DNA from: Planctomycetota bacterium
Lineage (GTDB): Bacteria; Planctomycetota; MHYJ01; JACPRB01
Assembly (NCBI GenBank): GCA_023261405.1
Contig: JAHFOZ010000003.1
Location: forward strand, 1 to 33,386
Direction: 5' to 3'
DNA length: 33,386 nucleotides
The position numbers were made by a program, and so were the translations under genes. Positions 16,170 to 33,386 of the stretch are shown here, piece by piece (position 1 is the first letter of the stretch; the number at the start of each line of letters is the position of its first letter). The notes beneath the pieces are model-generated. The model did no database searches and had not been told where the DNA came from. It saw only the letters and a program-made list of their open reading frames with translations.

Positions 16170-16328
16170 AAATTCGGAACTGCCGGGGGGCCGGGGGAGG
16201 CAGGTAGGGTCTTTCGGCGGATTCCCACAGCTCGGGGTGTTCTGCTGCCGGCATCCCGGTTGAATACGAAATCACGAACACCCCGCGAACTCAAGGTCGT
16301 GAGGTAGCTTGCACGGGCGCCGGATCTG

Positions 16329-16355
16329 CACCCGTGAAGCTTCGCCACCCGTGAA
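16329..16355 (+). repeat. Direct repeat CACCCGTGAA x2 (17-bp periodicity) upstream of an AT-rich -10-like element
   Basis: CACCCGTGAA occurs at 16329-16338 and 16346-16355. The second copy is part of a small hairpin CCCGT-GAA-ACGGG. TGTAATATAGGTAAGTA at 16373-16389 is the only AT-rich patch in the 400-bp divergent region. Confidence 0.5.
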
Positions 16356-16515
16356 ACGGGGCACCCTCTTCCTGTAATATAGGTAAGTAGGCTCCGGGGC
16401 GGGGTATCCTCCGGCCGGCCTGGGTACTGAGCCGCAGAAGTTCGGGGCCAGTTGTGCCTCCTGCGGCCAACGGGTCACGAACTTGCGAGTCGAAGTACTG
16501 CGAAAGGAACTTCAC

Positions 16516-19500
16516 GTGCTGCGTCTGGCGTCCATCACCCTCGGCGCGCTCCTCCTGGCCCTCGGGCCTGCATCCGGACAAGCCGGGCCGAAAGACGCCG
16601 GCAAGGTCGACTTCACCCGCGACATCCGCCCCATCCTCGCCAACAACTGCCTCCTCTGCCACGGGCCCGACGCGAAAGCGCGCAAGGCCGACCTGCGCCT
16701 CGACTCGCGGGACTCCGCCATGGCCGACCTGGGGGAGGGCGTCCGGGCCATCGTCCCGGGCCAGCCCGCCAAGAGCGCCCTCTACCAGCGCATCACCGCC
16801 GCCGATCCAGAGGACGTGATGCCCCCGGCCAAGACGGGGAAGAAGCTCACGAAGGTCCAGGTGGACCTCCTCAAGCGCTGGATCGAGGAGGGCGCCCCCT
16901 ACGCGAAGCACTGGTCGTTCGCCAGGCCCGAGCGTCCCGCGCCGCCTGCCGTGAAAGACGCGAAGTGGGCCCGCAACGACGTCGACCGCTTCATCCTCGC
17001 CCGCCTCGAGAGGGAGGGGCTCAAGCCCTCCCCCGAGGCCGACCGCCACGCCCTCGCGCGGCGCCTCTCGCTCGACCTCACCGGGCTGCCCCCTGCGATC
17101 GAGGACGTGGACCGTTTCGTGAACGACAAGGCCCCCGACGCCTACGAGACCTGCGTCGACCGCCTCCTCGCCTCGCCCGCCTACGGCGAGCGATGGGGCC
17201 GCGTCTGGCTCGACCTCGCCCGCTACGCCGATTCGCAGGGCTACACCGAGGACCGCCCCCGCGTCATCTGGGCCTTCCGCGACTGGGTGATCCGCGCGCT
17301 CAACGAGAACATGCCCTTCGACCGCTTCACGATCGAGCAGCTCGCCGGCGACCTCCTCCCGAACGCAACGGACTCCCAGGTCCAGGCCACCGGCTTCCAC
17401 CGCAACACGCTCACCCAGACCGAGGGCGGCACCGACGACGAGGAGTTCCGCAACTTCGCGATCATCGACCGCGTGAACACCACGATGGCGGTCTGGATGG
17501 GCGTCTCGTTCAACTGCGCGCAGTGCCACGACCACAAGTTCGACCCGTTCTCGCAGGAGGAGTTCTTCCGTCTCTTCGCCTTCTTCAACCAGACCGAGGA
17601 CAACGACCAGCCCGACGACAAGCCCCTCCTGATGATGTTCAGCGAGGAGCAGAAAAAGCAGAAGCAGGGCTGGCTGGACGAGATCGCCCGGCTGGAAACC
17701 GTCCTCGCCCAGCCCTCTCCCGAGCTCGAGGCGGGCCGGAAGAAGTGGGAGGAGGGTTTCCGGAAGCCCGTGGCGTGGACCGCGCTCAGGCCCGCCGAGC
17801 TCAAGAGCGCCTCCGGAGCCGCGCTCGCGCTCCAGGGGGACGCCTCCATCCTTGCGAGCGGAGGCACGCCGGCGAAGGACACCTACACGCTGCACGTCAC
17901 GACGGACGCGAAATCGATCGCCGCGCTCAGGCTCGAGGCCCTGCCCGACCCTTCGCTCCCCGCCTCCGGGCCGGGCCGCGGCGCCAAGGGCGACTTCCTC
18001 CTGTCGCGGGTCGCGGTCTCCCTCGTCCCGAAGGACGGCAAGTCGCTCGAGGCCCGCTTCGTGCGCGTGGAGCTCCCGGGCCAGCCGTACCTCTCGCTCG
18101 CCGAGGTCCAGGTCCTGAGCGGCGGCGCGAACGTCGCGCTCAAGGGGAAGGCGAGCCAGTCGAGCACCGGCTTCGAGGGCGTCGCCTCCCGGGCCATCGA
18201 CGGCGTGACCAACGGCGACTACCACGCGGCCAACTCCGTGACCCACACCGCCGGCGGCGAGGACAACCCGTGGTGGGAGGTCGATCTCGGGAAGCCCGTG
18301 CCGATCGAGAGGATCGTGATCTGGAACCGCACCGACGGCGGCACCTCCGAGCGACTCAAGGGCTTCAGGGTGAAGCTGCTCGACAAGGACCGCAAGGGGG
18401 TGGACGAGCGGAAGTTCGACAAGGCGCCCAACCCCAAGGTGGAGTGGCCGGTCGACGGCACGCGCGCCATCGCGCTCCGTTCGGCGCACGGGGAGGGCGG
18501 GGCGGCCGCGCTGGTGGCCAACGCCGACCCGAAGACCCAGGGCTGGTCGGGCGCGGCGGGGAAACCGCACGAGGCCGTGATCATCCTCGAGAAGCCCCTC
18601 GCCCTCGAGGCGGGGACGGTCCTGGGGCTGACGCTGGAGCACGCCTCGGGCGCCGCGCTGGGGAGGTTCCGGGTCTCGGCGACCGCGGACCCCGCGGCCC
18701 AGGCCGACCTGCCCGCGGACGTGCAGGCGATCCTGGGGAAGGCCGAGAGGTCGAAGGACGAAGCGGCGAAGGTCGAGACGTACTACCGGTCGATCGCCCC
18801 CGAGCGCGCGACGGAGCGCGCCCGCCTCGCCCAGGTCCGCAAGGACCTCGAGGGCCAGAAGGCGGCGATGACGGTCCCGGTGCTGCGCGAGCTGCCCGCG
18901 GCGCGCCGCCGGAAGACGCAGATCCAGGTGCGCGGCAACTTCCTCGTCAAGGAGAAGGAGGTCTCCGAGGGCGTGCCCGCGGTCTTCCACCCGATGCCCG
19001 AGGGCGAGCCGAAGAGCCGCCTCGCGCTGGCGAAGTGGCTCGTCCACCCGGACAACCCGCTCACGGCGCGCGTCGTGGTGAACCGGCACTGGGAGCAGCT
19101 CTTCGGGACCGGACTCGTCTCCACGAGCGAGGACTTCGGCGTGCGCGGCGAGCCGCCGTCGCACCCCGAGCTGCTCGACTGGTTGGCGACGGAGCTCGTC
19201 CGCGAGAAGTGGGACCTGAAGAAGCTCCTCAAGCTCCTGGTCACGTCCGCGACCTACCGGCAGGGCTCGAATCTTACGCCCGAGCTCGTCGGGAAGGACC
19301 CGGCGAACCGGCTCCTGGCGCGCGGCCCGCGGTTCCGCCTCTCGGCCGAGGCCGTGCGCGACCAGGCGCTCGCCGCGGGCGGGCTCCTGAGCCGCAAGAT
19401 GTTCGGGCCCTCGGTCTACCCGCCGCAGCCGAGGATCGGCCTGAGCGCGGCATTCTCCGGGTCGCTCGACTGGCAGACGAGCACGGGCGAGGACAAGTAC

Positions 19501-19956
19501 CGCCGCGGCCTCTACATCTTCTGGCGCCGCTCGGTCACCTATCCCTCGATGGCCACGTTCGACGCGCCCGACGGCAACGTCTGCTCGGTGCGCCGCATCC
19601 CGACGAACACGCCGCTCCAGGCCCTCGTCACGCTGAACGACCCGGTGTACGTCGAGGCGGCGCAGGGCCTGGCGCGGAAGATCGTGGCCGAGGGCGGCGC
19701 CTCGACCCGCGAGCGCGCGGGCTACGCCGTGCGGCGCTGCCTCTCGCGCCCGGCGCGCGACATCGAGCTTGACCGGCTGACGGCGCTCGTCGAGGAGGCC
19801 CGCGGGCGCTACGCCAAGGACGCCGCGAAGGCGAAGTCGATGGCCACGGAACCGCTGGGCCCGGTGCCCGCGGGGGCGGACCTCGCCGAGCTGGCCGCCT
19901 GGACGGTGGCGGGCAACGTGCTCCTGAACCTGGACGAAATGTTCCTCAAGAGGTGA
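16516..19956 (+). CDS. PSCyt1 - DUF1549/PSCyt2 - discoidin (F5/8 type C) - DUF1553/PSD1 protein
   Basis: The longest ORF begins at TTG 16483. GTG 16516 preceded by AAAGGAA gives the signal peptide (M)LRLASITLGALLLALGPASG. Motifs: [37 protein letters not shown], a discoidin-like block (QSSTGFEG..AIDG......NPWWEVDLG....IERIVIWNR) and the DUF1553 C-terminal region (PDGNVCSVRR). Confidence 0.92.
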   Translation: MLRLASITLGALLLALGPASGQAGPKDAGKVDFTRDIRPILANNCLLCHGPDAKARKADLRLDSRDSAMADLGEGVRAIVPGQPAKSALYQRITAADPEDVMPPAKTGKKLTKVQVDLLKRWIEEGAPYAKHWSFARPERPAPPAVKDAKWARNDVDRFILARLEREGLKPSPEADRHALARRLSLDLTGLPPAIEDVDRFVNDKAPDAYETCVDRLLASPAYGERWGRVWLDLARYADSQGYTEDRPRVIWAFRDWVIRALNENMPFDRFTIEQLAGDLLPNATDSQVQATGFHRNTLTQTEGGTDDEEFRNFAIIDRVNTTMAVWMGVSFNCAQCHDHKFDPFSQEEFFRLFAFFNQTEDNDQPDDKPLLMMFSEEQKKQKQGWLDEIARLETVLAQPSPELEAGRKKWEEGFRKPVAWTALRPAELKSASGAALALQGDASILASGGTPAKDTYTLHVTTDAKSIAALRLEALPDPSLPASGPGRGAKGDFLLSRVAVSLVPKDGKSLEARFVRVELPGQPYLSLAEVQVLSGGANVALKGKASQSSTGFEGVASRAIDGVTNGDYHAANSVTHTAGGEDNPWWEVDLGKPVPIERIVIWNRTDGGTSERLKGFRVKLLDKDRKGVDERKFDKAPNPKVEWPVDGTRAIALRSAHGEGGAAALVANADPKTQGWSGAAGKPHEAVIILEKPLALEAGTVLGLTLEHASGAALGRFRVSATADPAAQADLPADVQAILGKAERSKDEAAKVETYYRSIAPERATERARLAQVRKDLEGQKAAMTVPVLRELPAARRRKTQIQVRGNFLVKEKEVSEGVPAVFHPMPEGEPKSRLALAKWLVHPDNPLTARVVVNRHWEQLFGTGLVSTSEDFGVRGEPPSHPELLDWLATELVREKWDLKKLLKLLVTSATYRQGSNLTPELVGKDPANRLLARGPRFRLSAEAVRDQALAAGGLLSRKMFGPSVYPPQPRIGLSAAFSGSLDWQTSTGEDKYRRGLYIFWRRSVTYPSMATFDAPDGNVCSVRRIPTNTPLQALVTLNDPVYVEAAQGLARKIVAEGGASTRERAGYAVRRCLSRPARDIELDRLTALVEEARGRYAKDAAKAKSMATEPLGPVPAGADLAELAAWTVAGNVLLNLDEMFLKR

Positions 19957-19960
19957 GCGG

Positions 19961-21406
<1,446 letters not shown>

Positions 21407-22446: not shown

Positions 22447-23280
22447 ATGGCGGACGTGGTCGTCACCGTCGCGGAGATCCGTCGGGAGACGGACGACGCC
22501 GTGACGCTCCGCCTCGATCTGGGCGGAGCCGCATTCCCGTACCGGCCCGGGCAGTACATCGAGATCGATCCGCATCAATTCCCGGAGCTCGCTGGCGAGA
22601 TCGCGACGCTCGAGGCCGCCAAGGGGATGCCCGAATCGCCGCGCGGCTTTTCCCTGAGCTCCGACGCGCTCGAGCCGGGGTTCCTCGAGATCTCCATCAA
22701 GGAGGATCGGAAGGGCGCCTATCCCCCGCTCCTGACGCCTTTCCTGGTGCGGCGCGTGAAGGCGGGGCAGAAGCTCGCGCTCACGGGTCCGGCCGGCCGC
22801 TACGGACTTCCCGAGTCGCCGCCCGCCGTGGCGGGCTTCCTGCACCTCTGCGCCGGGAGCGGCGTGGCGCCGAACCGCGGCATGATCCGCCACGCCCTCG
22901 CGCGCGGATGGCCCCAGCGACATCTCCTCGTGCTCCAGAACCGCACGGCGGCGGATGTCTTCTTTGCGGCCGAATGGCCCGCGCTTCTCGAGCGCCACGC
23001 GGACCGGCTCCGCGTCCGCCACGTCCTCTCGGTCACCTCCGGCGAGCATGTCTCGGTGGAACTCCTCCGGGGCGAGATGAAGGGCTGGCTGGACGGGGCC
23101 GCCGACCTGGCGCTCGTCTGCGGACCCAACCGGCCGCGCGAGTCCGTAGGGCCGGACGGGGCGAAGACGAAGCAGCCCGGGTTCTGCGAGCAGTGGTGCG
23201 GCCATCCCCGCCGGAAGCTGCCCGGGCTTCTCGATCAGCTCGGCTTCACACCCGACCGGATCCTGACGGAGATGTGGTAG
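22447..23280 (+). CDS. Ferredoxin-NADP reductase-like FAD/NAD(P)-binding oxidoreductase
   Basis: FR-type FAD-binding beta-barrel (PGQYIEI...PRGFSLSS, i.e. the R-x-[YF]-S motif), the NAD(P) motif LCAGSGVAPNRGM, and a C-terminal ...DRILTEMW. It lies 10 nt downstream of the ThuA-like gene. Confidence 0.85.
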   Translation: MADVVVTVAEIRRETDDAVTLRLDLGGAAFPYRPGQYIEIDPHQFPELAGEIATLEAAKGMPESPRGFSLSSDALEPGFLEISIKEDRKGAYPPLLTPFLVRRVKAGQKLALTGPAGRYGLPESPPAVAGFLHLCAGSGVAPNRGMIRHALARGWPQRHLLVLQNRTAADVFFAAEWPALLERHADRLRVRHVLSVTSGEHVSVELLRGEMKGWLDGAADLALVCGPNRPRESVGPDGAKTKQPGFCEQWCGHPRRKLPGLLDQLGFTPDRILTEMW

Positions 23281-23283
23281 CCT

Positions 23284-23973
23284 TCAGCGCTTCGAGCCGC
23301 CCGTGCCGCACTCGATCATCCTGGGCACGAGCTCGTCGAAGTACCGGTACGTCACCTGCTCCAGCCGGAGGAGTCCCGCGCCGGCCAGTTTCCGGTGTGC
23401 CTCGGGGCGACTCCAAGAGGTTCCGATCCGGGGGAGCATCTTCACGGTTCCCTTCGACTTCCGCGGCGGGTCCAAGGTCGCGGCGCGTCTCCGGTGGAGT
23501 TCCGGATAGACCTCGAAGCCCCATCGGTCGACCTCGAACGCGAGCTCCATCTCCTCCCGGAATCTCCCCGGGTCCAGGTGGCCCGGGACGGCGTTGAGCA
23601 CGGTCCCGTCGGCCAGGGCGAAGATCGACGTGACGTTCGACGTCCCCGCCCCGACGGGGAGGGTCCGGCACTGGGCCTCCGGGAGCGGCTTGTGCTTCTC
23701 GAACGTCTCTCCTGGCCTCTTGTTGATCCACACGCAGGCGAAGCGGGCCGCGAGGTCTTTCCGGATCGCCGGGTCGGAGAACGTCACGGTCCTCATCGCC
23801 TGCGCGGCCCCTCAGCACTTCTCCTGGTCGAGGTCGCCCACGAGGTGATAGACGAAGAGGAGCTTCTTTTCGTGGACCGCAGTCTGTCGGGCCTCCTCCA
23901 CGGAGGCGTGCCACTTCACCGGTTCGATGAGTTGCGCCAGCGCGGCCGCCAGGAGGAGGCTCGTCGTCACCAT
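23284..23973 (-). CDS. Secreted thioredoxin-fold protein interrupted by an in-frame TGA (23812-23814) at the redox-motif position: candidate selenoprotein, alternatively a pseudogene
   Basis: Minus-strand ATG 23973 gives MVTTSLLLAAALAQLIEPVKWHASVEEARQTAVHEKKLLFVYHLVGDLDQEKC-TGA-GAAQAMRTVTFSDPAIRKDLAARFACVWINK..., in frame with the listed ORF 23284-23796. The two halves together form one thioredoxin-like (Thioredoxin_7-type) domain. The downstream half alone has no signal peptide and no properly spaced RBS. Confidence 0.55.
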
Positions 23974-24076: not shown

Positions 24077-24877
24077 TTACTTGGGGTCGTGTCCGATCAA
24101 CTGCTCCTGGTACTTTTCGTGGTCGTTGTACTCGGAGTGGGCGGTCCAGCAGCCCCAGCCGATGGCGCCCCGGGCGACGCGCTCGGGGGTCAGCGTAAAC
24201 TCGGCGAAGTTGGCCTGCCGTCCGCTGAGGTCCCAGCTGTACCCGAGCGCGGCGTCCTTGTACTTGTGGGAGAGGCAGTCGGCGTGGATGAACCGGTCGC
24301 CGAAGGCGTCGAGGATCCCGGTGGAGACGACGGGCTCGGTATGGCCGGGATTGACGTGCGCGCGGGTCTTGAGCTCGAGGATGCCGGGGATGACCGCGCC
24401 GTACTCGCGGCGGTCGGCGGAGACGGTGTACGTGATCGGGACGCGCTTGAATCCCTTGAACTCTCCGGCCAGGTGTTTGGCCTTGGACCCCCACGCCTTG
24501 AGGTCGCCCGAGAGCATGTCACCCAGGGCCTTCTCCTGTTCGGGGGTGGCTTTGTCGTCGAGGTAGACGACGACCCAGTTGGCGTCGGTCTTCTCGCCGA
24601 AGCCGCGGCCGGCGACGACCCAGGCAAGTCCGGCCATGGAGGTCTTGCCGACGTGGCCGGACTCGATGCGGACGGCGTCCGTGTGGTCGCACCCATGGCA
24701 CTGCATGGGCTTCTTGTTGATGCGGCAGGGGCAGGGGGCCGCGCAGCAGCAGCCGATGATCCGGGATCCCTTCAGGGTGAAGGCGGGGGCTTCCGCGGCG
24801 GGCGCGGGCCCGGATTTCGAGGCGCAGCCGGCGGCGGCCAGGGCGAGGGCGGCGAACATCGCGCGGTGAAGGCTCAT
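24077..24877 (-). CDS. DUF1326 family Cys-cluster protein with lipoprotein-type signal peptide
   Basis: ATG 24877 is preceded by GGGAGG (6-nt spacing). MSLHRAMFAALALAAAGC is a lipobox-like signal. The DUF1326 hallmark cluster GCCCAAPCPCRINKKPMQCHGCDH is present. Stop is TAA 24077-24079. Confidence 0.85.
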   Translation of the reverse strand: MSLHRAMFAALALAAAGCASKSGPAPAAEAPAFTLKGSRIIGCCCAAPCPCRINKKPMQCHGCDHTDAVRIESGHVGKTSMAGLAWVVAGRGFGEKTDANWVVVYLDDKATPEQEKALGDMLSGDLKAWGSKAKHLAGEFKGFKRVPITYTVSADRREYGAVIPGILELKTRAHVNPGHTEPVVSTGILDAFGDRFIHADCLSHKYKDAALGYSWDLSGRQANFAEFTLTPERVARGAIGWGCWTAHSEYNDHEKYQEQLIGHDPK

Positions 24878-24905
24878 CTTTTCCTCCCTTTCAATAGATC
24901 CCGGG

Positions 24906-24934
24906 AGTCTACCTACTAGTAGGTAGGATGTCAA
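24906..24934 (-). promoter_or_regulatory. Sigma70-like promoter of the DUF1326 gene (-35 TTGACA, 17-nt spacer, -10 TAGACT) overlapped by a perfect 18-bp palindromic operator
   Basis: The minus strand reads TTGACA-TCCTACCTACTAGTAGG-TAGACT. The palindrome CTACCTACT/AGTAGGTAG occupies 24909-24926, covering most of the spacer plus the first 3 nt of the -10. It sits between a TetR gene and its divergent neighbour. Confidence 0.6.
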
Positions 24935-26860: not shown

Positions 26861-26876
26861 AGGGTTTACTTTATCA
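26850..26876. repeat. AT-rich perfect inverted repeat (12-bp arms, GGG loop) formed by the stop codons and last codons of two convergent genes
   Basis: TGATAAAGTAAA (26850-26861), GGG, TTTACTTTATCA (26865-26876). Both genes end ATA-AAG-TAA (..IK*). An additional CTTTAT/ATAAAG copy is at 26843-26857. Confidence 0.85.
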
Positions 26877-27588
26877 GTATACGGATCTTGAGGTTGCGGT
26901 ACTCGCCGCGGTCGGAGTGGTCCTGGAGGCAGATCCGGCCCTTCGAGGCCTTGGCGAAGAGCGGCTTGTCCTTGAACTTGCTCGCGGCCACCTTAGCGTT
27001 CCAGTCCTCGCTGCCGATCTCGTACTCGACGATCTTCTCGCCGTTCATCCAGTGCTCCACGCGGTTGCCGTCCGCCAGGAGGCGCACCTTGTTCCATTCC
27101 CCCGCCGGGCGCGTCAGGTCCTTCGAGGGGGCGTAGAGGCCGTAGCAGGCGCCCGCGAGCTCCCGCTTGTCGCGCGCCGGGTACTTCGCGTTGTCCAGCA
27201 CCTGCATCTCGGGGGCCTCGTGCCAGCTCGTGGCCGCCTTCTCGACCACGCGGTAGAGGACCCCCGCGTTTCCGCCCTTGGCGATCTTCCATTCCAGGGA
27301 GAGCTCGAAGTTGTCGTACTCGTCCACGGTGACAATGTCGTCGCCCCCGCCGGCCCCCTTGCCGCCCGTGCCTCCCGCGACCCGCGCCAGGACGCCGTCC
27401 ACGGCCTGCCAGCCGGGGGGGATCTTTTCCATCTTGTATCCGCGCCAGCCGTCGGTGGTCTTCCCGTCGAACAAGAGCTTCCACCCGGCCTTCTTCTCCT
27501 CCTCCGTGAGCGTGTTGTCCTGCCTCGGGGCGAGCCCGAGGGCCTGCGTCACGATCAGGACGGCGATCCCCAACACGGCGTGATTCAT
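26866..27588 (-). CDS. DUF1080 (3-keto-disaccharide hydrolase-like, ConA-like fold) secreted protein
   Basis: ATG 27588 is preceded by GGAGGA. MNHAVLGIAVLIVTQALG is the signal peptide. Hallmarks: LTEEEKKAGWKLLFDGKTTDGWRGY ... FELSLEWKI..GGNAG ... GRICLQDHSD..EYRNLKIR. The long 679-aa ORF extension upstream is a GC-rich artefact. Confidence 0.92.
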   Translation of the reverse strand: MNHAVLGIAVLIVTQALGLAPRQDNTLTEEEKKAGWKLLFDGKTTDGWRGYKMEKIPPGWQAVDGVLARVAGGTGGKGAGGGDDIVTVDEYDNFELSLEWKIAKGGNAGVLYRVVEKAATSWHEAPEMQVLDNAKYPARDKRELAGACYGLYAPSKDLTRPAGEWNKVRLLADGNRVEHWMNGEKIVEYEIGSEDWNAKVAASKFKDKPLFAKASKGRICLQDHSDRGEYRNLKIRILIK

Positions 27589-27672
27589 CGCATCCTCCGT
27601 AGATCCGTCTTCCTGATAGTACACGCGGAACCTTCCCTCCCGGACAAGAGAAGGGGAAGAGCAGGAGGTCCC

Positions 27673-29028
27673 ATGGGGCGAATGTCGATCCTCGGCGCAT
27701 TCCTCCTCCTGGCCGCCGCGACCCCCTTCGACTCCGCTCAGGGCAAGCAGGAGGCTTCCGCCTTCCGCGCCGGGTTCGCGGAGAGTGACATCACCCCGCC
27801 GATCGGCATCCCCATGCAGGGCGCCAACGCGAAGCAGAGGGCCGAGAAGGTCGTCGACCCGCTCTTCGCGCGCGCGGCGGTCTTCGAGAGGGGCGCCGAG
27901 CTCGTGGGCTTCATCCAGCTCGACCTCGCCTGCATCTCCGCGGAGGACACCGCCGCGATCCGGACGAGAATCGCCGCGGACCACGGCACGCCGGCGGCGC
28001 GTGTGATGGTGACGGCCACGCACAACCACGCGGGCCCTGCCGTGATCGACGAGGCCCTGCCGCGCGACCAGGCCTGGGTCGCTTCCATGGTCGAGAAAGC
28101 CTCGGCGGTCTTCGGCAAGGCGCTCGAGGCCCGGCAGGAGGCGCAGGCGGGGGCCGCGAGCGTCTTCGAGTGGGAGGTCTCGTTCAACCGGCGCATCGTC
28201 ATGCGCGACGGCACCGTGCGCACCCACGGCTCGTTCAAGAGCCCGGACGCGCTGCGCTTCGAGGGGCCGATCGACCCCGAGGTGGCCGTCTACGCCGTGC
28301 GAGGGAAGGACGGGAAGATCGCGGGGGCCATCGTCAACTTCGCCTGCCACCCGGGGCACTACTGGGCGAAGTGCATCCTGAGCGGGGGCTACCCGGGCGC
28401 GGTGGCGCGGGCGCTCAAGGAGAAGGGCGTCCCGGTCACGCTCTTCCTGCAGGGCGCGGCCGGCAACATGCACCACCAGGACCCGCGGGGATTCCCGGAG
28501 AAGACCCTGGAGGAGATCGGGCAGCGCCTCGCGGACGACGCGGAGAAGGCGATCGGGAAGATCAAGTGGAAGGCGCCGTCGCGGATCAGCGCCCGCTCGA
28601 AGACGCTGGAGATCCCCTACCGGATGCCGACCGAGGCGGACCTCCAGGGGACCGCGAAGGGCGCGCAGCGCTTCGGCGAGAAGGGCTACTACGACCGGAA
28701 GATCGCCGAGCTGCTCGAGGGGATCAAGAAGAAAAACGGGGTCGAGCCCGCCGAGGTGCAGGTCTTCCGCCTCGACGACGTGGCCTTCGCCGCGCAGCCC
28801 TCGGAGAGCTTTGCGGAGCACGGGCTCCGCATCAAGGAGGAGACCTCGCCCGAGCGGACCTTTGTGGTCTGCTATGCGAACGGGATGCTCGGGTACCTTC
28901 CGCACGTCGAAGGCTTCAAGCGCGGCGGCTACGAAGCCACGTTCGGCCCGCCGAGCTGCATGGCCCCCGACGCGGGCGACCGCCTGGCGGACGCGGCGAT
29001 CGAGCTCATCCGAGCGACTCGGCCCTGA
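27673..29028 (+). CDS. Neutral/alkaline non-lysosomal ceramidase N-terminal domain-like hydrolase
   Basis: ATG 27673 is preceded by AGGAGG. It has a signal peptide (MGRMSILGAFLLLAAATPFDSA). Motifs: FRAGFAESDITPPIGIPMQG, VDPLFARAAVFE, VMVTATHNHAGP, NFACHP. Confidence 0.85.
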   Translation: MGRMSILGAFLLLAAATPFDSAQGKQEASAFRAGFAESDITPPIGIPMQGANAKQRAEKVVDPLFARAAVFERGAELVGFIQLDLACISAEDTAAIRTRIAADHGTPAARVMVTATHNHAGPAVIDEALPRDQAWVASMVEKASAVFGKALEARQEAQAGAASVFEWEVSFNRRIVMRDGTVRTHGSFKSPDALRFEGPIDPEVAVYAVRGKDGKIAGAIVNFACHPGHYWAKCILSGGYPGAVARALKEKGVPVTLFLQGAAGNMHHQDPRGFPEKTLEEIGQRLADDAEKAIGKIKWKAPSRISARSKTLEIPYRMPTEADLQGTAKGAQRFGEKGYYDRKIAELLEGIKKKNGVEPAEVQVFRLDDVAFAAQPSESFAEHGLRIKEETSPERTFVVCYANGMLGYLPHVEGFKRGGYEATFGPPSCMAPDAGDRLADAAIELIRATRP

Positions 29029-30135: not shown

Positions 30136-31500
30136 TCAGCGCGCCGCGCGGAAGCGGACGCGGAGCAGGTCGCCCTTCTTGTAGGCCCCTGTGCGGGGGA
30201 CGAGGACGAAGGGGTCGGAGACGATCGCCACGCCTTCGAGGAGTTCCACCTTCCCGACACGGCGCGGGAGGAGCAGCGCCGGGGGGCGGCCCCAGGAGCC
30301 GTCGGCGCGGGCGGCACCCTCGAGCGTGAACACCCCGTCCTTCTCGGTGAGCGTGAGCGGGAAGGGCGCGTCGCCCTGGCGGTCGAGGCGGGCCTCCCAG
30401 GCGGGGTCTCCATAGAAAGCCACGGTGTCGCGGTCCCAGAGGAGGCCGAGGGCGTCCTTCTCGCGGATCCCGTGCTTGCGCGCCAGGGCGGGCAGCAGGT
30501 TGGGGTCGGACTCGATCCCGAACTCGTCGAGGTCCACCCGGGCGTGTTTGGGGAAGCGCGACTCGAGCTGCCAGACGAGCGCCTGGTTGTTCAGGAAGAA
30601 ACTCTCCGCGTAGGTGTGGGCGCCCGTCATGAAGTAGTCATGCACGCCCCAGCCGCCGTAGCCGAACCACGTCGACACCGTGTAGCCCACCATCTGGTGG
30701 ACGCCCCCCGTGTGCATCCAGGCCAGGGCCATCGCGTCGCGGTCGGGGATGCGCCCCATGAGGCAGTTGCCGAGGGCGCTGTAGACTTTCGGGGAGGGCG
30801 AGGCGATGGGATGGCGCCCGCCGCGAAGGTCGAGGCCGAAGAGCTTCCCCTCCGCGCAGCGGAACTGGCCGTTCGGATACGAGTAACCGATCTGCCAGTC
30901 TCGCTCCGTGGCATGGCCGCTTGTCTGGAAGAGATCGCAGCCGCGGTTGAGCTCCTCGACGATCGCCTGCGTGCTGTCGTCGGGGCAGGCCTTCTTCTCC
31001 GGCAGCCCGCCCTTTTCCTTCCTCCAGCAGACGTTCTTCTCCCCCTCGGAGTACCACGCGCCCTCGGCGAAGATCTCGAGCGGCACGCCCGTCCCCGCCA
31101 GCGCTCGCCGGACGCGGAGGGGCTCCTTCCGCTCCGCGATGCGCTTCGCGTCCGCGGCGTCGTAGCCCGTAAGGATCCCCCAGAGGCAGTCCCCGTAAGG
31201 ATCGTCGTCGAGGGCCCTCGTCAGGCGATGGACGGCAACGACGAAAGGCCTGTCGGCCTCCTCCGGACGGGCGACGAAGCAGGCGTAGCGGGGGGCCACG
31301 CGGGACAGCTCGGCGCGGGCCTCCTCGACCCCCTTCTCCCAGGTCACGACCGCGGCGCCGCCGTGCTTCGCGCGAAGGGCCTCCACCACGCCGGTCCACG
31401 CCGCCTGTGTGGCCTTCGAGACGACGATCGCATAGGAGGGCTCGGGCGGACGCGCCTGGGCGAGGAGGAAGGCCGCAAGGATCGCGTGCAGGCTGTTCAT
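30136..31500 (-). CDS. Secreted protein with gingipain/peptidase C25-like (clan CD) His/Cys signature
   Basis: ATG 31500 gives the signal peptide MNSLHAILAAFLLAQA. TSGHATERDW resembles the G-H-G-S-E-T-x-W around the gingipain catalytic His (from memory). ALGNCLMG...AMALAWMHTGGVHQMVGYTVSTW resembles the A-C-x-x-G...A.A.M...GA...G.S..S.W region around the catalytic Cys. The 1068-aa ORF extension upstream of 31500 is antisense to the next real gene. Confidence 0.7.
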   Translation of the reverse strand: MNSLHAILAAFLLAQARPPEPSYAIVVSKATQAAWTGVVEALRAKHGGAAVVTWEKGVEEARAELSRVAPRYACFVARPEEADRPFVVAVHRLTRALDDDPYGDCLWGILTGYDAADAKRIAERKEPLRVRRALAGTGVPLEIFAEGAWYSEGEKNVCWRKEKGGLPEKKACPDDSTQAIVEELNRGCDLFQTSGHATERDWQIGYSYPNGQFRCAEGKLFGLDLRGGRHPIASPSPKVYSALGNCLMGRIPDRDAMALAWMHTGGVHQMVGYTVSTWFGYGGWGVHDYFMTGAHTYAESFFLNNQALVWQLESRFPKHARVDLDEFGIESDPNLLPALARKHGIREKDALGLLWDRDTVAFYGDPAWEARLDRQGDAPFPLTLTEKDGVFTLEGAARADGSWGRPPALLLPRRVGKVELLEGVAIVSDPFVLVPRTGAYKKGDLLRVRFRAAR

Positions 31501-31578
31501 GCCATGAGAAGAGACACCGCCGCCGGGTCCCTGCGTGCGGCCGGCGCCCGATCGTACCCCGCCTTCCCCGCGTACCCG

Positions 31579-31607
31579 TTCACATCCGGGGGGGTAATTG
31601 GTATAAA
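31579..31607 (+). promoter_or_regulatory. Candidate sigma70-like promoter (TTCACA - 17 nt - TATAAA) for the third PSCyt gene
   Basis: TTCACA at 31579-31584 and TATAAA at 31602-31607 have exactly 17-nt spacing, within the only AT-rich patch of the divergent intergenic region. GGAG at 31625-31628 lies before ATG 31639. Confidence 0.35.
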
Positions 31608-31638
31608 GTACCAGACCTCCTTTCGGAGTCCTCGGGCG

Positions 31639-33386
31639 ATGCTGCCGATCCGCTGTGCCGCGCTCATCCTCGTCCTCCTGGCCACGGGCCGCCCCGCGCC
31701 CGGCGCCGGAGATCCGCAAGACCCCGTCCGCTTCAACCGCGACATCCGCCCCATCCTCGCGGCCAACTGCTTCGCGTGCCACGGACCCGACCCGGGCTCC
31801 CGCAAGGCGAAGCTGCGCCTCGACCGCGAGGAAGGCTTCTTCGGAGACCGGGAGGGCGGCCCCACCGTCGTTCGTGGAAAGGCGGAGGCGAGCCCGCTTT
31901 ACCAGCGCATCACCCACAACGATCCCGAAGAGGTCATGCCTCCGACCAAGTCGAAAAAGACGCTCAAGCCGGCGGAGAAGGAGTTCCTCAAGAGATGGAT
32001 CGCCCAGGGCGCCCCGTGGGAGGCCCACTGGTCGTTGATCAAGCCCGAGCGGCCCGCGCCGCCCGCCGTGAAGGACGCCTCGTGGGTGCGGAACGCGGTC
32101 GACCGCTTCGTGCTCGCGCGCCTCGAGGCCGAGGGTCTCAAGCCCGCCCCCGAGGCCGACCGCCGCACGCTGGCGCGGCGCCTCTCGCTCGACCTCACGG
32201 GCCTCCCGCCCGATCCGGACGAGGTCGAGGCGTTCGTCGCGGACCGGTCCGCCGACGCGGTCGAGAAGCTCGTGGACCGCTGGCTGGCCTCGCCCCGCTA
32301 CGGCGAGCACCGCGCGCGGTACTGGCTGGACGCCGCCCGCTACGCCGACACGCACGGCCTCCACTTCGACAACTTCCGCGACATCTGGCCCTACCGCGAC
32401 TGGGTGGTGAACGCCTTCAACGCGAACCAGCCGTTCGACCAGTTCACCGTGGACCAGCTTGCCGGCGACCTCCGTCCCGAGCCCACGAAGGAGCAGCGGG
32501 TCGCCACCGGCTTCCACCGATGCAACATCACCACGAACGAGGGCGGGACCATCGCCGAGGAAAACCTCGCCAACTACGCCCGCGAGCGCGTCGAGTCGAC
32601 CTCCGCGGTCTGGCTCGGGCTCACGGCCAACTGCGCCGTCTGCCACGACCACAAGTTCGATCCCATCACCACGAAGGACTTCTATTCCCTGAGCGCCTTC
32701 TTCCGGAACACCACGCAGGGCGCGCTGGACGGCAACGTGCGCGACACCGCGCCCGTGATGATGATCCCGAAGCCGGAGGACGAGAAGCGCTGGGAGGAGA
32801 TCCCGAAAGAGGCCGAGGGGGCGAAGAAGGCCGCGGTCGACCGGCGCAAGGACCTCCGCGCGGAGTGGGAGAAGTGGCTCGAGACCGCCAAGGCCGAAGA
32901 CTGGGACGCGGAGGTCGCCAAGATCGGCCCGCCCGCCTTCCACCTCCCGCTCGACGCGGAGCAGCCCGCCGATGGGGTCACGGGCACGCTCGCCGGAAAG
33001 CCGGTGACGGCGAAGGCCGCCGCCCCGATCCACTGGGAGGAGCGGCCCGGCCACGGCAAGGCGCTGGTGCTCGACGGGAAGTCGCCCCTCGACCTGCAGG
33101 GCGACGCGGGGGCGTTCGAGAAAGACGGCAAGGTCTCCTTTGGCTGCTGGATCAAGCTGCACAAGGGCTTCCAGGGGGCGGCGTCGGTCATCGCCCGGAT
33201 GGACGACGACGACGCCTACCGGGGTTGGGACCTCTACGTCCAGAACAACGAGTTCGGCGCCCACCTGATCCACACGTGGCCCCAGGACGCGATCAAGGTG
33301 GTCACCACGGGCGGCCAGGCGAAGCCGGAAACCTGGCAGCACGTCTTCGTCACCTACGACGGCTCGCTGAAGGGCGAGGGGTTCAA
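31639..33386 (+). CDS. PSCyt1 - DUF1549/PSCyt2 - LamG/ConA-like lectin domain protein, 3'-partial (runs off the window)
   Basis: It is not in the ORF track because no stop is reached. I translated frame 1 from ATG 31639 to the window end without a stop: MLPIRCAALILVLLATG...IRPILAANCFACHGPD...[10 protein letters not shown]...CAVCHDHKFDP..., then a LamG-like block (GKALVLDG...VSFGCWIKL...ARMDDDDAYRGWDLYVQNNEFGAHL...WQHVFVTYDG). Confidence 0.9.
   Translation, partial: MLPIRCAALILVLLATGRPAPGAGDPQDPVRFNRDIRPILAANCFACHGPDPGSRKAKLRLDREEGFFGDREGGPTVVRGKAEASPLYQRITHNDPEEVMPPTKSKKTLKPAEKEFLKRWIAQGAPWEAHWSLIKPERPAPPAVKDASWVRNAVDRFVLARLEAEGLKPAPEADRRTLARRLSLDLTGLPPDPDEVEAFVADRSADAVEKLVDRWLASPRYGEHRARYWLDAARYADTHGLHFDNFRDIWPYRDWVVNAFNANQPFDQFTVDQLAGDLRPEPTKEQRVATGFHRCNITTNEGGTIAEENLANYARERVESTSAVWLGLTANCAVCHDHKFDPITTKDFYSLSAFFRNTTQGALDGNVRDTAPVMMIPKPEDEKRWEEIPKEAEGAKKAAVDRRKDLRAEWEKWLETAKAEDWDAEVAKIGPPAFHLPLDAEQPADGVTGTLAGKPVTAKAAAPIHWEERPGHGKALVLDGKSPLDLQGDAGAFEKDGKVSFGCWIKLHKGFQGAASVIARMDDDDAYRGWDLYVQNNEFGAHLIHTWPQDAIKVVTTGGQAKPETWQHVFVTYDGSLKGEGF

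Follow-up and report, generated by a model that had tools for sequence, protein, structure and literature searches.

Introduction

The bacterial selenocysteine insertion sequence (SECIS) of the Escherichia coli fdhF type is a hairpin that lies within the open reading frame (ORF), 16-37 nt 3′ of the UGA codon, and carries a small loop with a G followed by a U. A 2026 review that lists 119 prokaryotic selenoprotein families (PMC13188914) summarises the consensus bSECIS model of Zhang and Gladyshev, which has a loop of 3-9 nt, a stem of 4-16 bp, a G in the first two loop positions, a spacing of 16-37 nt and a minimum free energy (MFE) of -7.5 kcal/mol or lower. Only one of the listed families, the Trx7/PDZ selenoprotein (NF041199; Table 1 of PMC13188914), is built on a Thioredoxin_7-type domain. 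In the selenoproteins of the Trx, Grx, DsbA-like, DsbG-like and thiol:disulfide interchange types, some of which are exported, selenocysteine (Sec) replaces the N-terminal, nucleophilic Cys, and the same replacement is proposed for the protein described here. We analysed a 33,386-nt stretch of DNA (the window) from a Planctomycetota bacterium (GenBank assembly GCA_023261405.1, contig JAHFOZ010000003.1, positions 1 to 33,386). A minus-strand gene at 23284..23973 in this window is interrupted by an in-frame TGA, which, judging from its sequence and that of its homologs, is very probably a genuine Sec codon with a SECIS element, so that the gene would encode an exported thioredoxin-fold selenoprotein of 229 residues. 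An earlier note, made from the letters of the sequence, had put forward the Sec reading; it is now supported by the conservation of the TGA, its exchange with Cys, purifying selection and a SECIS-type hairpin with compensated stem changes.

Results

An in-frame TGA in a minus-strand gene of the window

The minus-strand frame that opens with the ATG at 23973-23971 reads MVTTSLLLAAALAQLIEPVKWHASVEEARQTAVHEKKLLFVYHLVGDLDQEKC, meets a TGA at 23814-23812, continues uninterrupted as GAAQAMRTVTFSDPAIRKDLAARFACVWINK and ends at a TGA at 23286-23284. The complete gene (23284..23973) comprises 229 codons, with the proposed Sec at codon 54, in addition to the terminal TGA stop (23284..23286), which was read from the sequence, and it is collinear with TGA-bearing homologs. 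The residues ahead of the in-frame TGA form a hydrophobic N-terminus followed by ...KKLLFVYHLVGDLDQEKC. The proposed Sec54 codon (23812..23814) is a TGA in 38 genes of the family and a TGC in two, and it is directly preceded by the TGC codon of Cys53 (23815..23817), which gives a vicinal C-U pair; Cys is common at the aligned position. Further downstream are an internal ATG (Met60, 23794..23796), where gene callers place what would be the false start of a 170-aa fragment (P0001 among the proteins beginning here), and an 18-nt SECIS-like hairpin, GAGGAC-CGUGAC-GUUCUC (23777..23794), which is the consensus structure of the alignment. The coordinates, the frame and the hairpin sequence of the earlier note were all re-derived correctly from the window.

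The earlier note held that neither half is a whole protein, and the division of structural elements agrees with this. The 5′ piece (53 aa) contains the signal peptide, helix α0 and strand β1 of the thioredoxin fold, and the 3′ piece has none of these and has no start codon in nine relatives.

Conservation of the TGA codon

When the read-through sequence was used in a word-indexed protein search, five proteins were recovered, each of them a post-TGA fragment of 163-170 aa. On the contigs of the four matches from outside the window, an in-frame ORF of 53-83 aa lies just upstream and ends with a TGA at the aligned codon. Scanning of a genome collection identified ten loci, nine of which are from metagenome-assembled genomes (MAGs) of Planctomycetota, and scanning of metagenomes identified twelve loci that cover the site; the TGA is present in all of them. 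The search patterns excluded the TGA, as the genome scan stopped at the preceding Cys and the metagenome patterns were far from both the TGA and the hairpin. Altogether, 38 TGA-bearing genes from the genome and metagenome collections, on about 30 independent contigs, were read at the nucleotide level, and all are collinear across the TGA, as the earlier note had anticipated. At the aligned codon, 38 of 40 family genes have TGA and the other two have TGC, so that this position is always Sec or Cys, again as anticipated. Across the family, members are 22% to 84% identical to the window protein. Cys precedes Sec in 32 of the 37 tabulated genes; the remainder have Thr, Ser, Val or Ala.

The earlier note had named an elevated ratio of nonsynonymous to synonymous substitution rates (dN/dS) as a sign of decay. 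Rough Nei-Gojobori estimates gave a dN/dS of about 0.16-0.48 on each flank of the TGA, which by this comparison of sequences indicates that both flanks are under purifying selection. We also considered reassignment of TGA to a sense codon. Because TGA is the ordinary terminator of the window gene and of 10 of 19 relatives, that is, a real stop in these same genes, the genetic code is not reassigned, and this explanation was rejected.

The two Cys forms, P0131 (locus L016) and P0150 (L035), are full-length single ORFs with TGC at the aligned codon, reading ...GYA-C-LGGHLMR... and ...GYV-C-LGGHLMR..., respectively. Their nearest Sec-form relative is P0063 on L017 (...GFV-U-LGAHLMR...), which is 53% identical to P0131. 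L017 and L035 share a two-gene arrangement. Both genes of L017 are Sec forms, whereas L035 has Cys in its first gene and Sec in its second.

A second site of exchange was found in the N-terminal extension of one subfamily, where the motif C-U-x(5-7)-KPW is present in L008a, L009, L010 and L013b and reads C-C in the paralogs L011 and L013a. The second-site TGA is at 9033 in L008, 1620 in L009, 9956 in L010 and 2680 in L013, and the corresponding TGC is at 9971 in L011 and 1700 in L013. Some members of the family would thus be two-Sec proteins, as read from their genes. A short hairpin, AAGCCCU-GGN-AGGGCUU, follows the second-site TGAs. A similar hairpin is kept in the Cys form L011, and the hairpin evidence at the second site is weaker for that reason.

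A profile built from the downstream fragments was searched against 1.84 billion cluster representatives and matched 520 clusters at E ≤ 0.001, 230 of them, clustered at 50% identity, at E ≤ 1e-10. About 140 of 158 representatives examined begin with MR[TA]V..., at an ATG six codons past the TGA. The upstream TGA was read directly for P0001-P0005 and P0063 and is presumed for the remaining representatives. This start pattern is the signature of a gene caller that restarts past an unrecognised Sec codon.

In several loci (L005, L008, L013, L017, L021, L023, L025 and L035), two or three paralogs lie in tandem and every copy has a TGA of its own, and L007 and L011 are paralogs on separate contigs of one MAG (JBGPCZ01). 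Other MAGs with family members are JBBTCT01, DASRJF01, DASXTT01, DASVNH01, WSZJ01, CAYXVY01 and JAIOPR01. Locus L013 (CAZPCZ010000090.1) is from a co-assembly bin labelled 'uncultured Gammaproteobacteria'; the other named hosts are all Planctomycetota, and the label could reflect mis-binning or horizontal transfer. A deletion derivative, P0041, was found in two independent assemblies (L033 3001-3960 and L034 1819-2778). It has lost the segment for β1, the GDLD loop and C-U, so that GKP is joined to HAMRTVTFSD, with a change of frame upstream; the hairpin sequence is intact, and P0041 is probably a decaying copy. Some members, including P0041 and L007 9386-10588, carry an extra N-terminal domain of about 130 aa (..LILLRQVHCDCDGPACAAL..) that, in its sequence, resembles a divergent, all-Cys version of this fold, which would make these proteins a tandem of a Cys domain and a Sec domain.

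The hairpin downstream of the TGA

The loop of the window hairpin, CGUGAC, is 6 nt long, lies 23 nt past the UGA and has G and then U at positions 2-3; the stem has 6 bp. These values are within the bSECIS model, and the MFE of the segment between the UGA and +45 is -13.9 kcal/mol. The z-score of the window fold is only -1.2, which is not significant. We scanned the family loci with a version of the model that was stricter on the stem, requiring at least 6 contiguous base pairs. A model hairpin follows 37 of the 38 family TGAs, compared with 18.9% of the other TGA triplets in the same loci, and in the 38th this hairpin is present with a single C.A mismatch. The spacing is nearly always 23-24 nt after the UGA and 18 nt in a few cases. 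Taken alone, therefore, the window hairpin is not beyond chance, but the family-wide pattern is.

The hairpin is the consensus structure of the family alignments. In a 30-sequence alignment, 180 of 180 stem cells are paired, compared with 27-56% when the 3′ partners are slid. In L017, an A-U pair is changed to C-G, with Arg encoded by CGG and Ser replaced by Ala. In L014 and L032 (peptides MRADVLK and MRTAVLK), where the loop has 4 nt and an A-U pair has become G-C, the hairpin is GAGGRC-GGNC-GUCCUC. A hairpin unrelated in sequence, CGUCUUC-CGGGU-GAAGACG, lies 18 nt past the UGA in the paralogs L017b and L035b (peptide HVFRVKTL). Codon usage bears the same imprint: the Arg at +7 is encoded by AGR in 19 of 19 genes, compared with 49 of 352 (13.9%) of the other Arg codons in the same genes, because the hairpin stem forces the rare AGR. 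Synonymous sites within the stem are nearly frozen, and those just outside it vary. In both Cys forms, two or three mismatches are present in the centre of the stem, and no model hairpin was detected. The suggestion of the earlier note that the hairpin is compatible with a bacterial SECIS element is thus upheld by the scan and by the compensated changes and the loss in the Cys forms.

The same cannot be said of an 8-bp outer stem, GGGCCGCG (23810-23803) paired with CGCGGCCC (23752-23745), that encloses the hairpin (23745..23810) and that the earlier note described together with it. It appears in the MFE fold of the window and is kept only in the closest relative, being out of register in L002-L004 and in more distant members. 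We rejected it as part of the SECIS because it is not conserved beyond that relative; it is probably specific to the window lineage and not functional. A search against Rfam at gathering thresholds gave no match in the window.

Fold, active site and export

The thioredoxin-fold domain (residues about 19-150; 23524..23919) spans the TGA, as indicated by Pfam, PDB-profile and homolog-model matches. Against Pfam, the window protein scored 17.5 bits with Thioredoxin_7 and 17.3 bits with Thioredox_DsbH (E about 0.004), the threshold being 27 bits. These matches begin at residue 15 or 21 and extend to 85, crossing the TGA, and Thioredox_DsbH is weakly matched by 18 of 19 family members (best E 3e-6). 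The family profile matched a DUF255 structure in the PDB (3ira, E 0.0016). An AlphaFold model of the Cys form P0131, made with a 149-sequence alignment, has a predicted local distance difference test (pLDDT) score of 78.9 and a predicted template modelling (pTM) score of 0.68. Its elements are ordered α0-β1-loop-α1-β2-α2-β3-β4-α3, followed by a helical bundle, and Cys118 is placed just ahead of α1, in a low-confidence segment where the alignment is thin. The best Foldseek matches of the model were 3ira, DsbH (2ju5), 3f9u, the C-terminal domain of DsbD, ERp19 and AGR2; their E-values are modest (1.7e-3 upward) and the matches are uniformly thioredoxin-fold. By profile match and model, then, the fold is thioredoxin-like, of the DsbH/Thioredoxin_7 type. 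The earlier assignment to a Thioredoxin_7-like domain stands as far as the fold is concerned; with a score below the Pfam threshold, the protein is a distant relative and not a formal member of that family. The C-terminal helical region (residues 151-229; 23287..23523) varies among subfamilies in alignment A4 and is helical in the homolog model.

The window protein has no CxxC motif (C-U-G-A-A), and all 19 aligned members have Ala or Gly at +3. A gapless alignment with DUF255 (T-C-H-W-C-H-M-M against C-U-A-A-G-H-V-M) places Sec on the first Cys and Gly/Ala on the second. The HMMER alignment to 3ira is shifted by one residue, with the preceding Cys on the first Cys and an extra gap. The gapless placement is supported by P0131, a form with a single Cys. 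The proposal of the earlier note that the TGA corresponds to the first Cys of CxxC is therefore favoured by the gapless alignment and by P0131, and disputed by the HMMER alignment. We think that Sec probably occupies the position of the first CxxC Cys, that the second Cys has been lost and that a Cys usually precedes Sec (C-U).

The start codon and a probable signal peptide (MVTTSLLLAAALA|Q; 23935..23973) include a hydrophobic stretch that extends to A-L-A, as recognised by eye. Relatives have more obvious putative signal peptides (MKSIVGIVVMLAVAGSAWA, MKYVAVALLLLGSMAHA), and in the Cys forms the N-terminus looks like a membrane-anchoring helix. The protein is probably exported by means of its N-terminal signal peptide.

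Genes surrounding the probable selenoprotein gene

The window is about 70% G+C and contains genes typical of planctomycetes (PSCyt1, PSCyt2, PSD1 and two DUF1501). A DUF1326 gene (Pfam E 2e-28; 24077-24934, minus strand) lies on the same strand, 103 nt upstream of the selenoprotein start, and carries the Cys-rich motif CCCAAPCPCRINKKPMQCHGCDH. A ferredoxin-reductase-like gene (NAD_binding_1; 22447-23280, plus strand) converges on the selenoprotein gene, their stops being 4 nt apart. That its product supplies reductant is speculative, and the convergent arrangement is not kept in the other loci. An all-against-all comparison of ORFs from the loci found no conserved neighbour except paralogs of the family.

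Pfam gave nothing at E ≤ 1e-5 for two very long minus-strand ORFs, 16291-20142 (1283 aa) and 30136-33342 (1068 aa). At 26866-29028, long ORFs on the two strands overlap. The minus strand matches 3keto-disac_hyd and the plus strand, weakly, Ceramidase_alk, each in a different part; the real genes are probably shorter and convergent. Such overlap illustrates how poor a guide ORF length is at 70% G+C. A GC3-filtered scan of the window and the loci for further TGA-interrupted ORFs returned only family members and noise from antisense frames. With ARAGORN, neither the window nor 11 loci yielded any tRNA, tRNA-Sec included.

Discussion

The results are best explained if the UGA at codon 54 is read as Sec during translation. 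The in-ORF hairpin, 23 nt downstream, would act as the bacterial SECIS element and, by the established bacterial mechanism, would bring SelB with its Sec-tRNA(Sec) to a ribosome that has paused at this codon. Such machinery is available in the phylum, as complete sets have been reported in Gemmata, Isosphaera and two further planctomycetes (PMC4807772). The signal peptide is expected to direct the protein out of the cytoplasm. Sec would be situated at the N-terminus of helix α1, in the place of the nucleophilic first Cys, with the resolving Cys at +3 replaced by Ala or Gly. The redox centre would then most likely be a selenenylsulfide between the adjacent Cys and Sec, similar to what is found in animal thioredoxin reductase (GCUG centre), and the protein may be a periplasmic or extracytoplasmic thiol/selenol oxidoreductase, acting as a reductase or a peroxidase-like scavenger, as its motif suggests.

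Several observations weigh against this interpretation or against parts of it. The bare window hairpin is weak (-5.2 to -6.0 kcal/mol), and hairpins that conform to the model are common in such GC-rich DNA, following about 19% of TGA triplets. True covariation rests on few events, because most of the stem does not vary and is overlapped by the codons of the conserved peptide RTVTFS. No selA, selB, selD or tRNA-Sec gene was found in the window or in the fetched loci, stretches that fall short of a whole genome. The signal peptide of the window protein has no charged n-region, the protein scores under the Pfam gathering threshold, and the structural model is of a distant Cys-form homolog and not of the window protein. 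Lastly, the redox mechanism is what we infer from the motif, and a metal-binding role of C-U would be equally compatible with the sequence.

This last point leads to an alternative hypothesis in which Sec is genuine and C-U functions not as a redox couple but as a ligand for a metal or metalloid (Hg, Cu, As or an organometallic compound). Several predicted bacterial selenoproteins with a CU motif, namely SaoB (CUxxT), SaoC, SaoL, HgcA and MbdU, are associated with metals (PMC13188914). In addition, many relatives of the window protein have an extra N-terminal CxC, CC or CU motif, and the Cys form in L016 has a YHS-domain gene nearby. However, both the fold and the placement of Sec match thiol-disulfide oxidoreductases, and conserved neighbours in the fetched loci include neither metal transporters nor resistance genes. 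We consider a metal-ligand role unlikely, and redox chemistry at a genuine Sec remains our preferred interpretation.

One could also envision that the TGA is read by a standard tRNA, placing Trp, Cys or Arg at codon 54, or that it is a regulated leaky stop that yields a mixture of the 53-aa and full-length products, with the hairpin serving as a stimulator of read-through. Downstream structures can stimulate read-through in other systems, the hairpin is short, and the evidence on Sec machinery is limited to the window and the loci. On the other hand, the codon corresponds to a catalytic Cys, homologs can have Cys in its place, and the exchange of TGA with TGC occurs a second time within the same family. 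The hairpin also matches a SECIS in its spacing and its G/U loop, and it vanishes where the codon is TGC. We know of no such read-through system in bacteria for redox-active Cys positions. Read-through without Sec is therefore very unlikely in our view.

A still less plausible hypothesis is that the locus consists of two separate genes, one for a 53-aa secreted peptide and the other for a 170-aa protein that starts at ATG 23796. Gene callers give exactly this split, and the codon six past the TGA is ATG in 28 of the 37 tabulated genes. In the other nine it is CTG, CAG, ACG or GCG, and the 5′ and 3′ pieces invariably share one frame, with exactly 15 nt between them. Moreover, the thioredoxin-domain matches cross the junction, the 3′ piece is devoid of β1 and of a signal peptide, and the Cys forms are single continuous ORFs. 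We regard two separate genes as highly improbable. Finally, although TGC to TGA is a one-base change and the relative P0041 is truly a deletion derivative, a pseudogene or an assembly or sequencing error, that is, a nonsense mutation of a former Cys codon, is hardly credible given that the same TGA is found in 38 genes from independent samples at 22-84% identity, that dN/dS is below 0.5 on both sides, and that an identical 1.6 kb including the TGA is present in an independent ENA assembly (ERZ27279977).

With selenocysteine as the preferred reading, we think it reasonably likely, although with less assurance than for the Sec codon itself, that the window gene belongs to a large, uncatalogued family of exported proteins that is centred on Planctomycetota, has nearly obligate Sec and a vicinal Cys-Sec in place of CxxC, occurs in tandem arrays and includes two-Sec forms. 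The family was probably missed by methods based on Cys/Sec pairs, and by ordinary gene callers, because Cys homologs are so rare. If this is true, a large family would be added to the approximately 119 that are catalogued in prokaryotes, in a phylum that is absent from the catalogues compared, and selenium use in Planctomycetota would have been substantially under-counted. It would also mean that gene callers and pipelines that depend on Cys homologs miss families in which Sec is nearly fixed. Annotation would be corrected as well, in that hundreds of 'hypothetical' proteins of 150-250 aa that start with MRTVTFS would be 3′ fragments of longer genes. An exported thioredoxin-fold protein in which Cys-Sec takes the place of CxxC would also represent an unusual active-site design. 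The syntenic loci L017 and L035 offer a natural test of Sec versus Cys retention, as they contain the same gene with and without the hairpin.

No DsbH/Thioredoxin_7-type C-U family is among the 119 families listed (PMC13188914), and Planctomycetes are mentioned neither in that review nor in the deep-Sep and BSepDB papers. NCBIfam release 20 gave no match for the window protein (E up to 10) or for a two-Sec relative. The NCBI label for the downstream fragment P0006, which evidently corresponds to L014, is 'hypothetical protein'. As far as this comparison of sequences, catalogues and openly available papers goes, the active-site design and the family appear not to have been described, and the Sec-decoding arrangement and the fold are themselves ordinary. 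The hairpin resembles the E. coli SECIS elements in its arrangement and is unrelated to them in sequence; its stem is only 6-9 bp, and binding of SelB is predicted.

Thioredox_DsbH/DUF255 (PF03190) and Thioredoxin_7 (PF13899) have the fold and the N-terminal helix α0 in common with the family, and the motifs line up; in sequence and in structure (3ira, DsbH 2ju5 and 3f9u), nothing else matches the family as well. In contrast to these families, the window protein and its relatives have [C]-U-x-x-[G/A] instead of CxxC, a β1-α1 loop that is 6 residues longer and contains a GDLD motif, a C-terminal helical region, and almost always Sec. AGR2, AGR3 and ERp19 are structural matches and are likewise secreted or endoplasmic reticulum (ER) thioredoxin-like proteins with an incomplete CxxC, but they are eukaryotic, lack Sec and, apart from the fold, are not detectably related in sequence. 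Animal thioredoxin reductase has a C-terminal Gly-Cys-Sec-Gly centre, in which the adjacent Cys and Sec can form a vicinal selenenylsulfide. That pair is located on the flexible C-terminal tail of a flavoenzyme, whereas the pair described here is at the CxxC position of a thioredoxin fold, and the two proteins are not homologous.

The Trx7/PDZ selenoprotein (NF041199) has CxxU, with Sec in the second position, and a PDZ domain, whereas the window protein has CU and no PDZ match. Known thioredoxin-fold selenoproteins keep the resolving Cys (UxxC), and their Cys homologs far outnumber the Sec forms. The window family, in contrast, has no Cys at +3 and a Cys at -1, and the ratio of Sec forms to Cys forms, about 38:2 among the genes read, is the reverse of that in the known families. 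The deep-Sep authors state that their method can miss families without Cys homologs, and the reversed ratio may explain why this family was missed.

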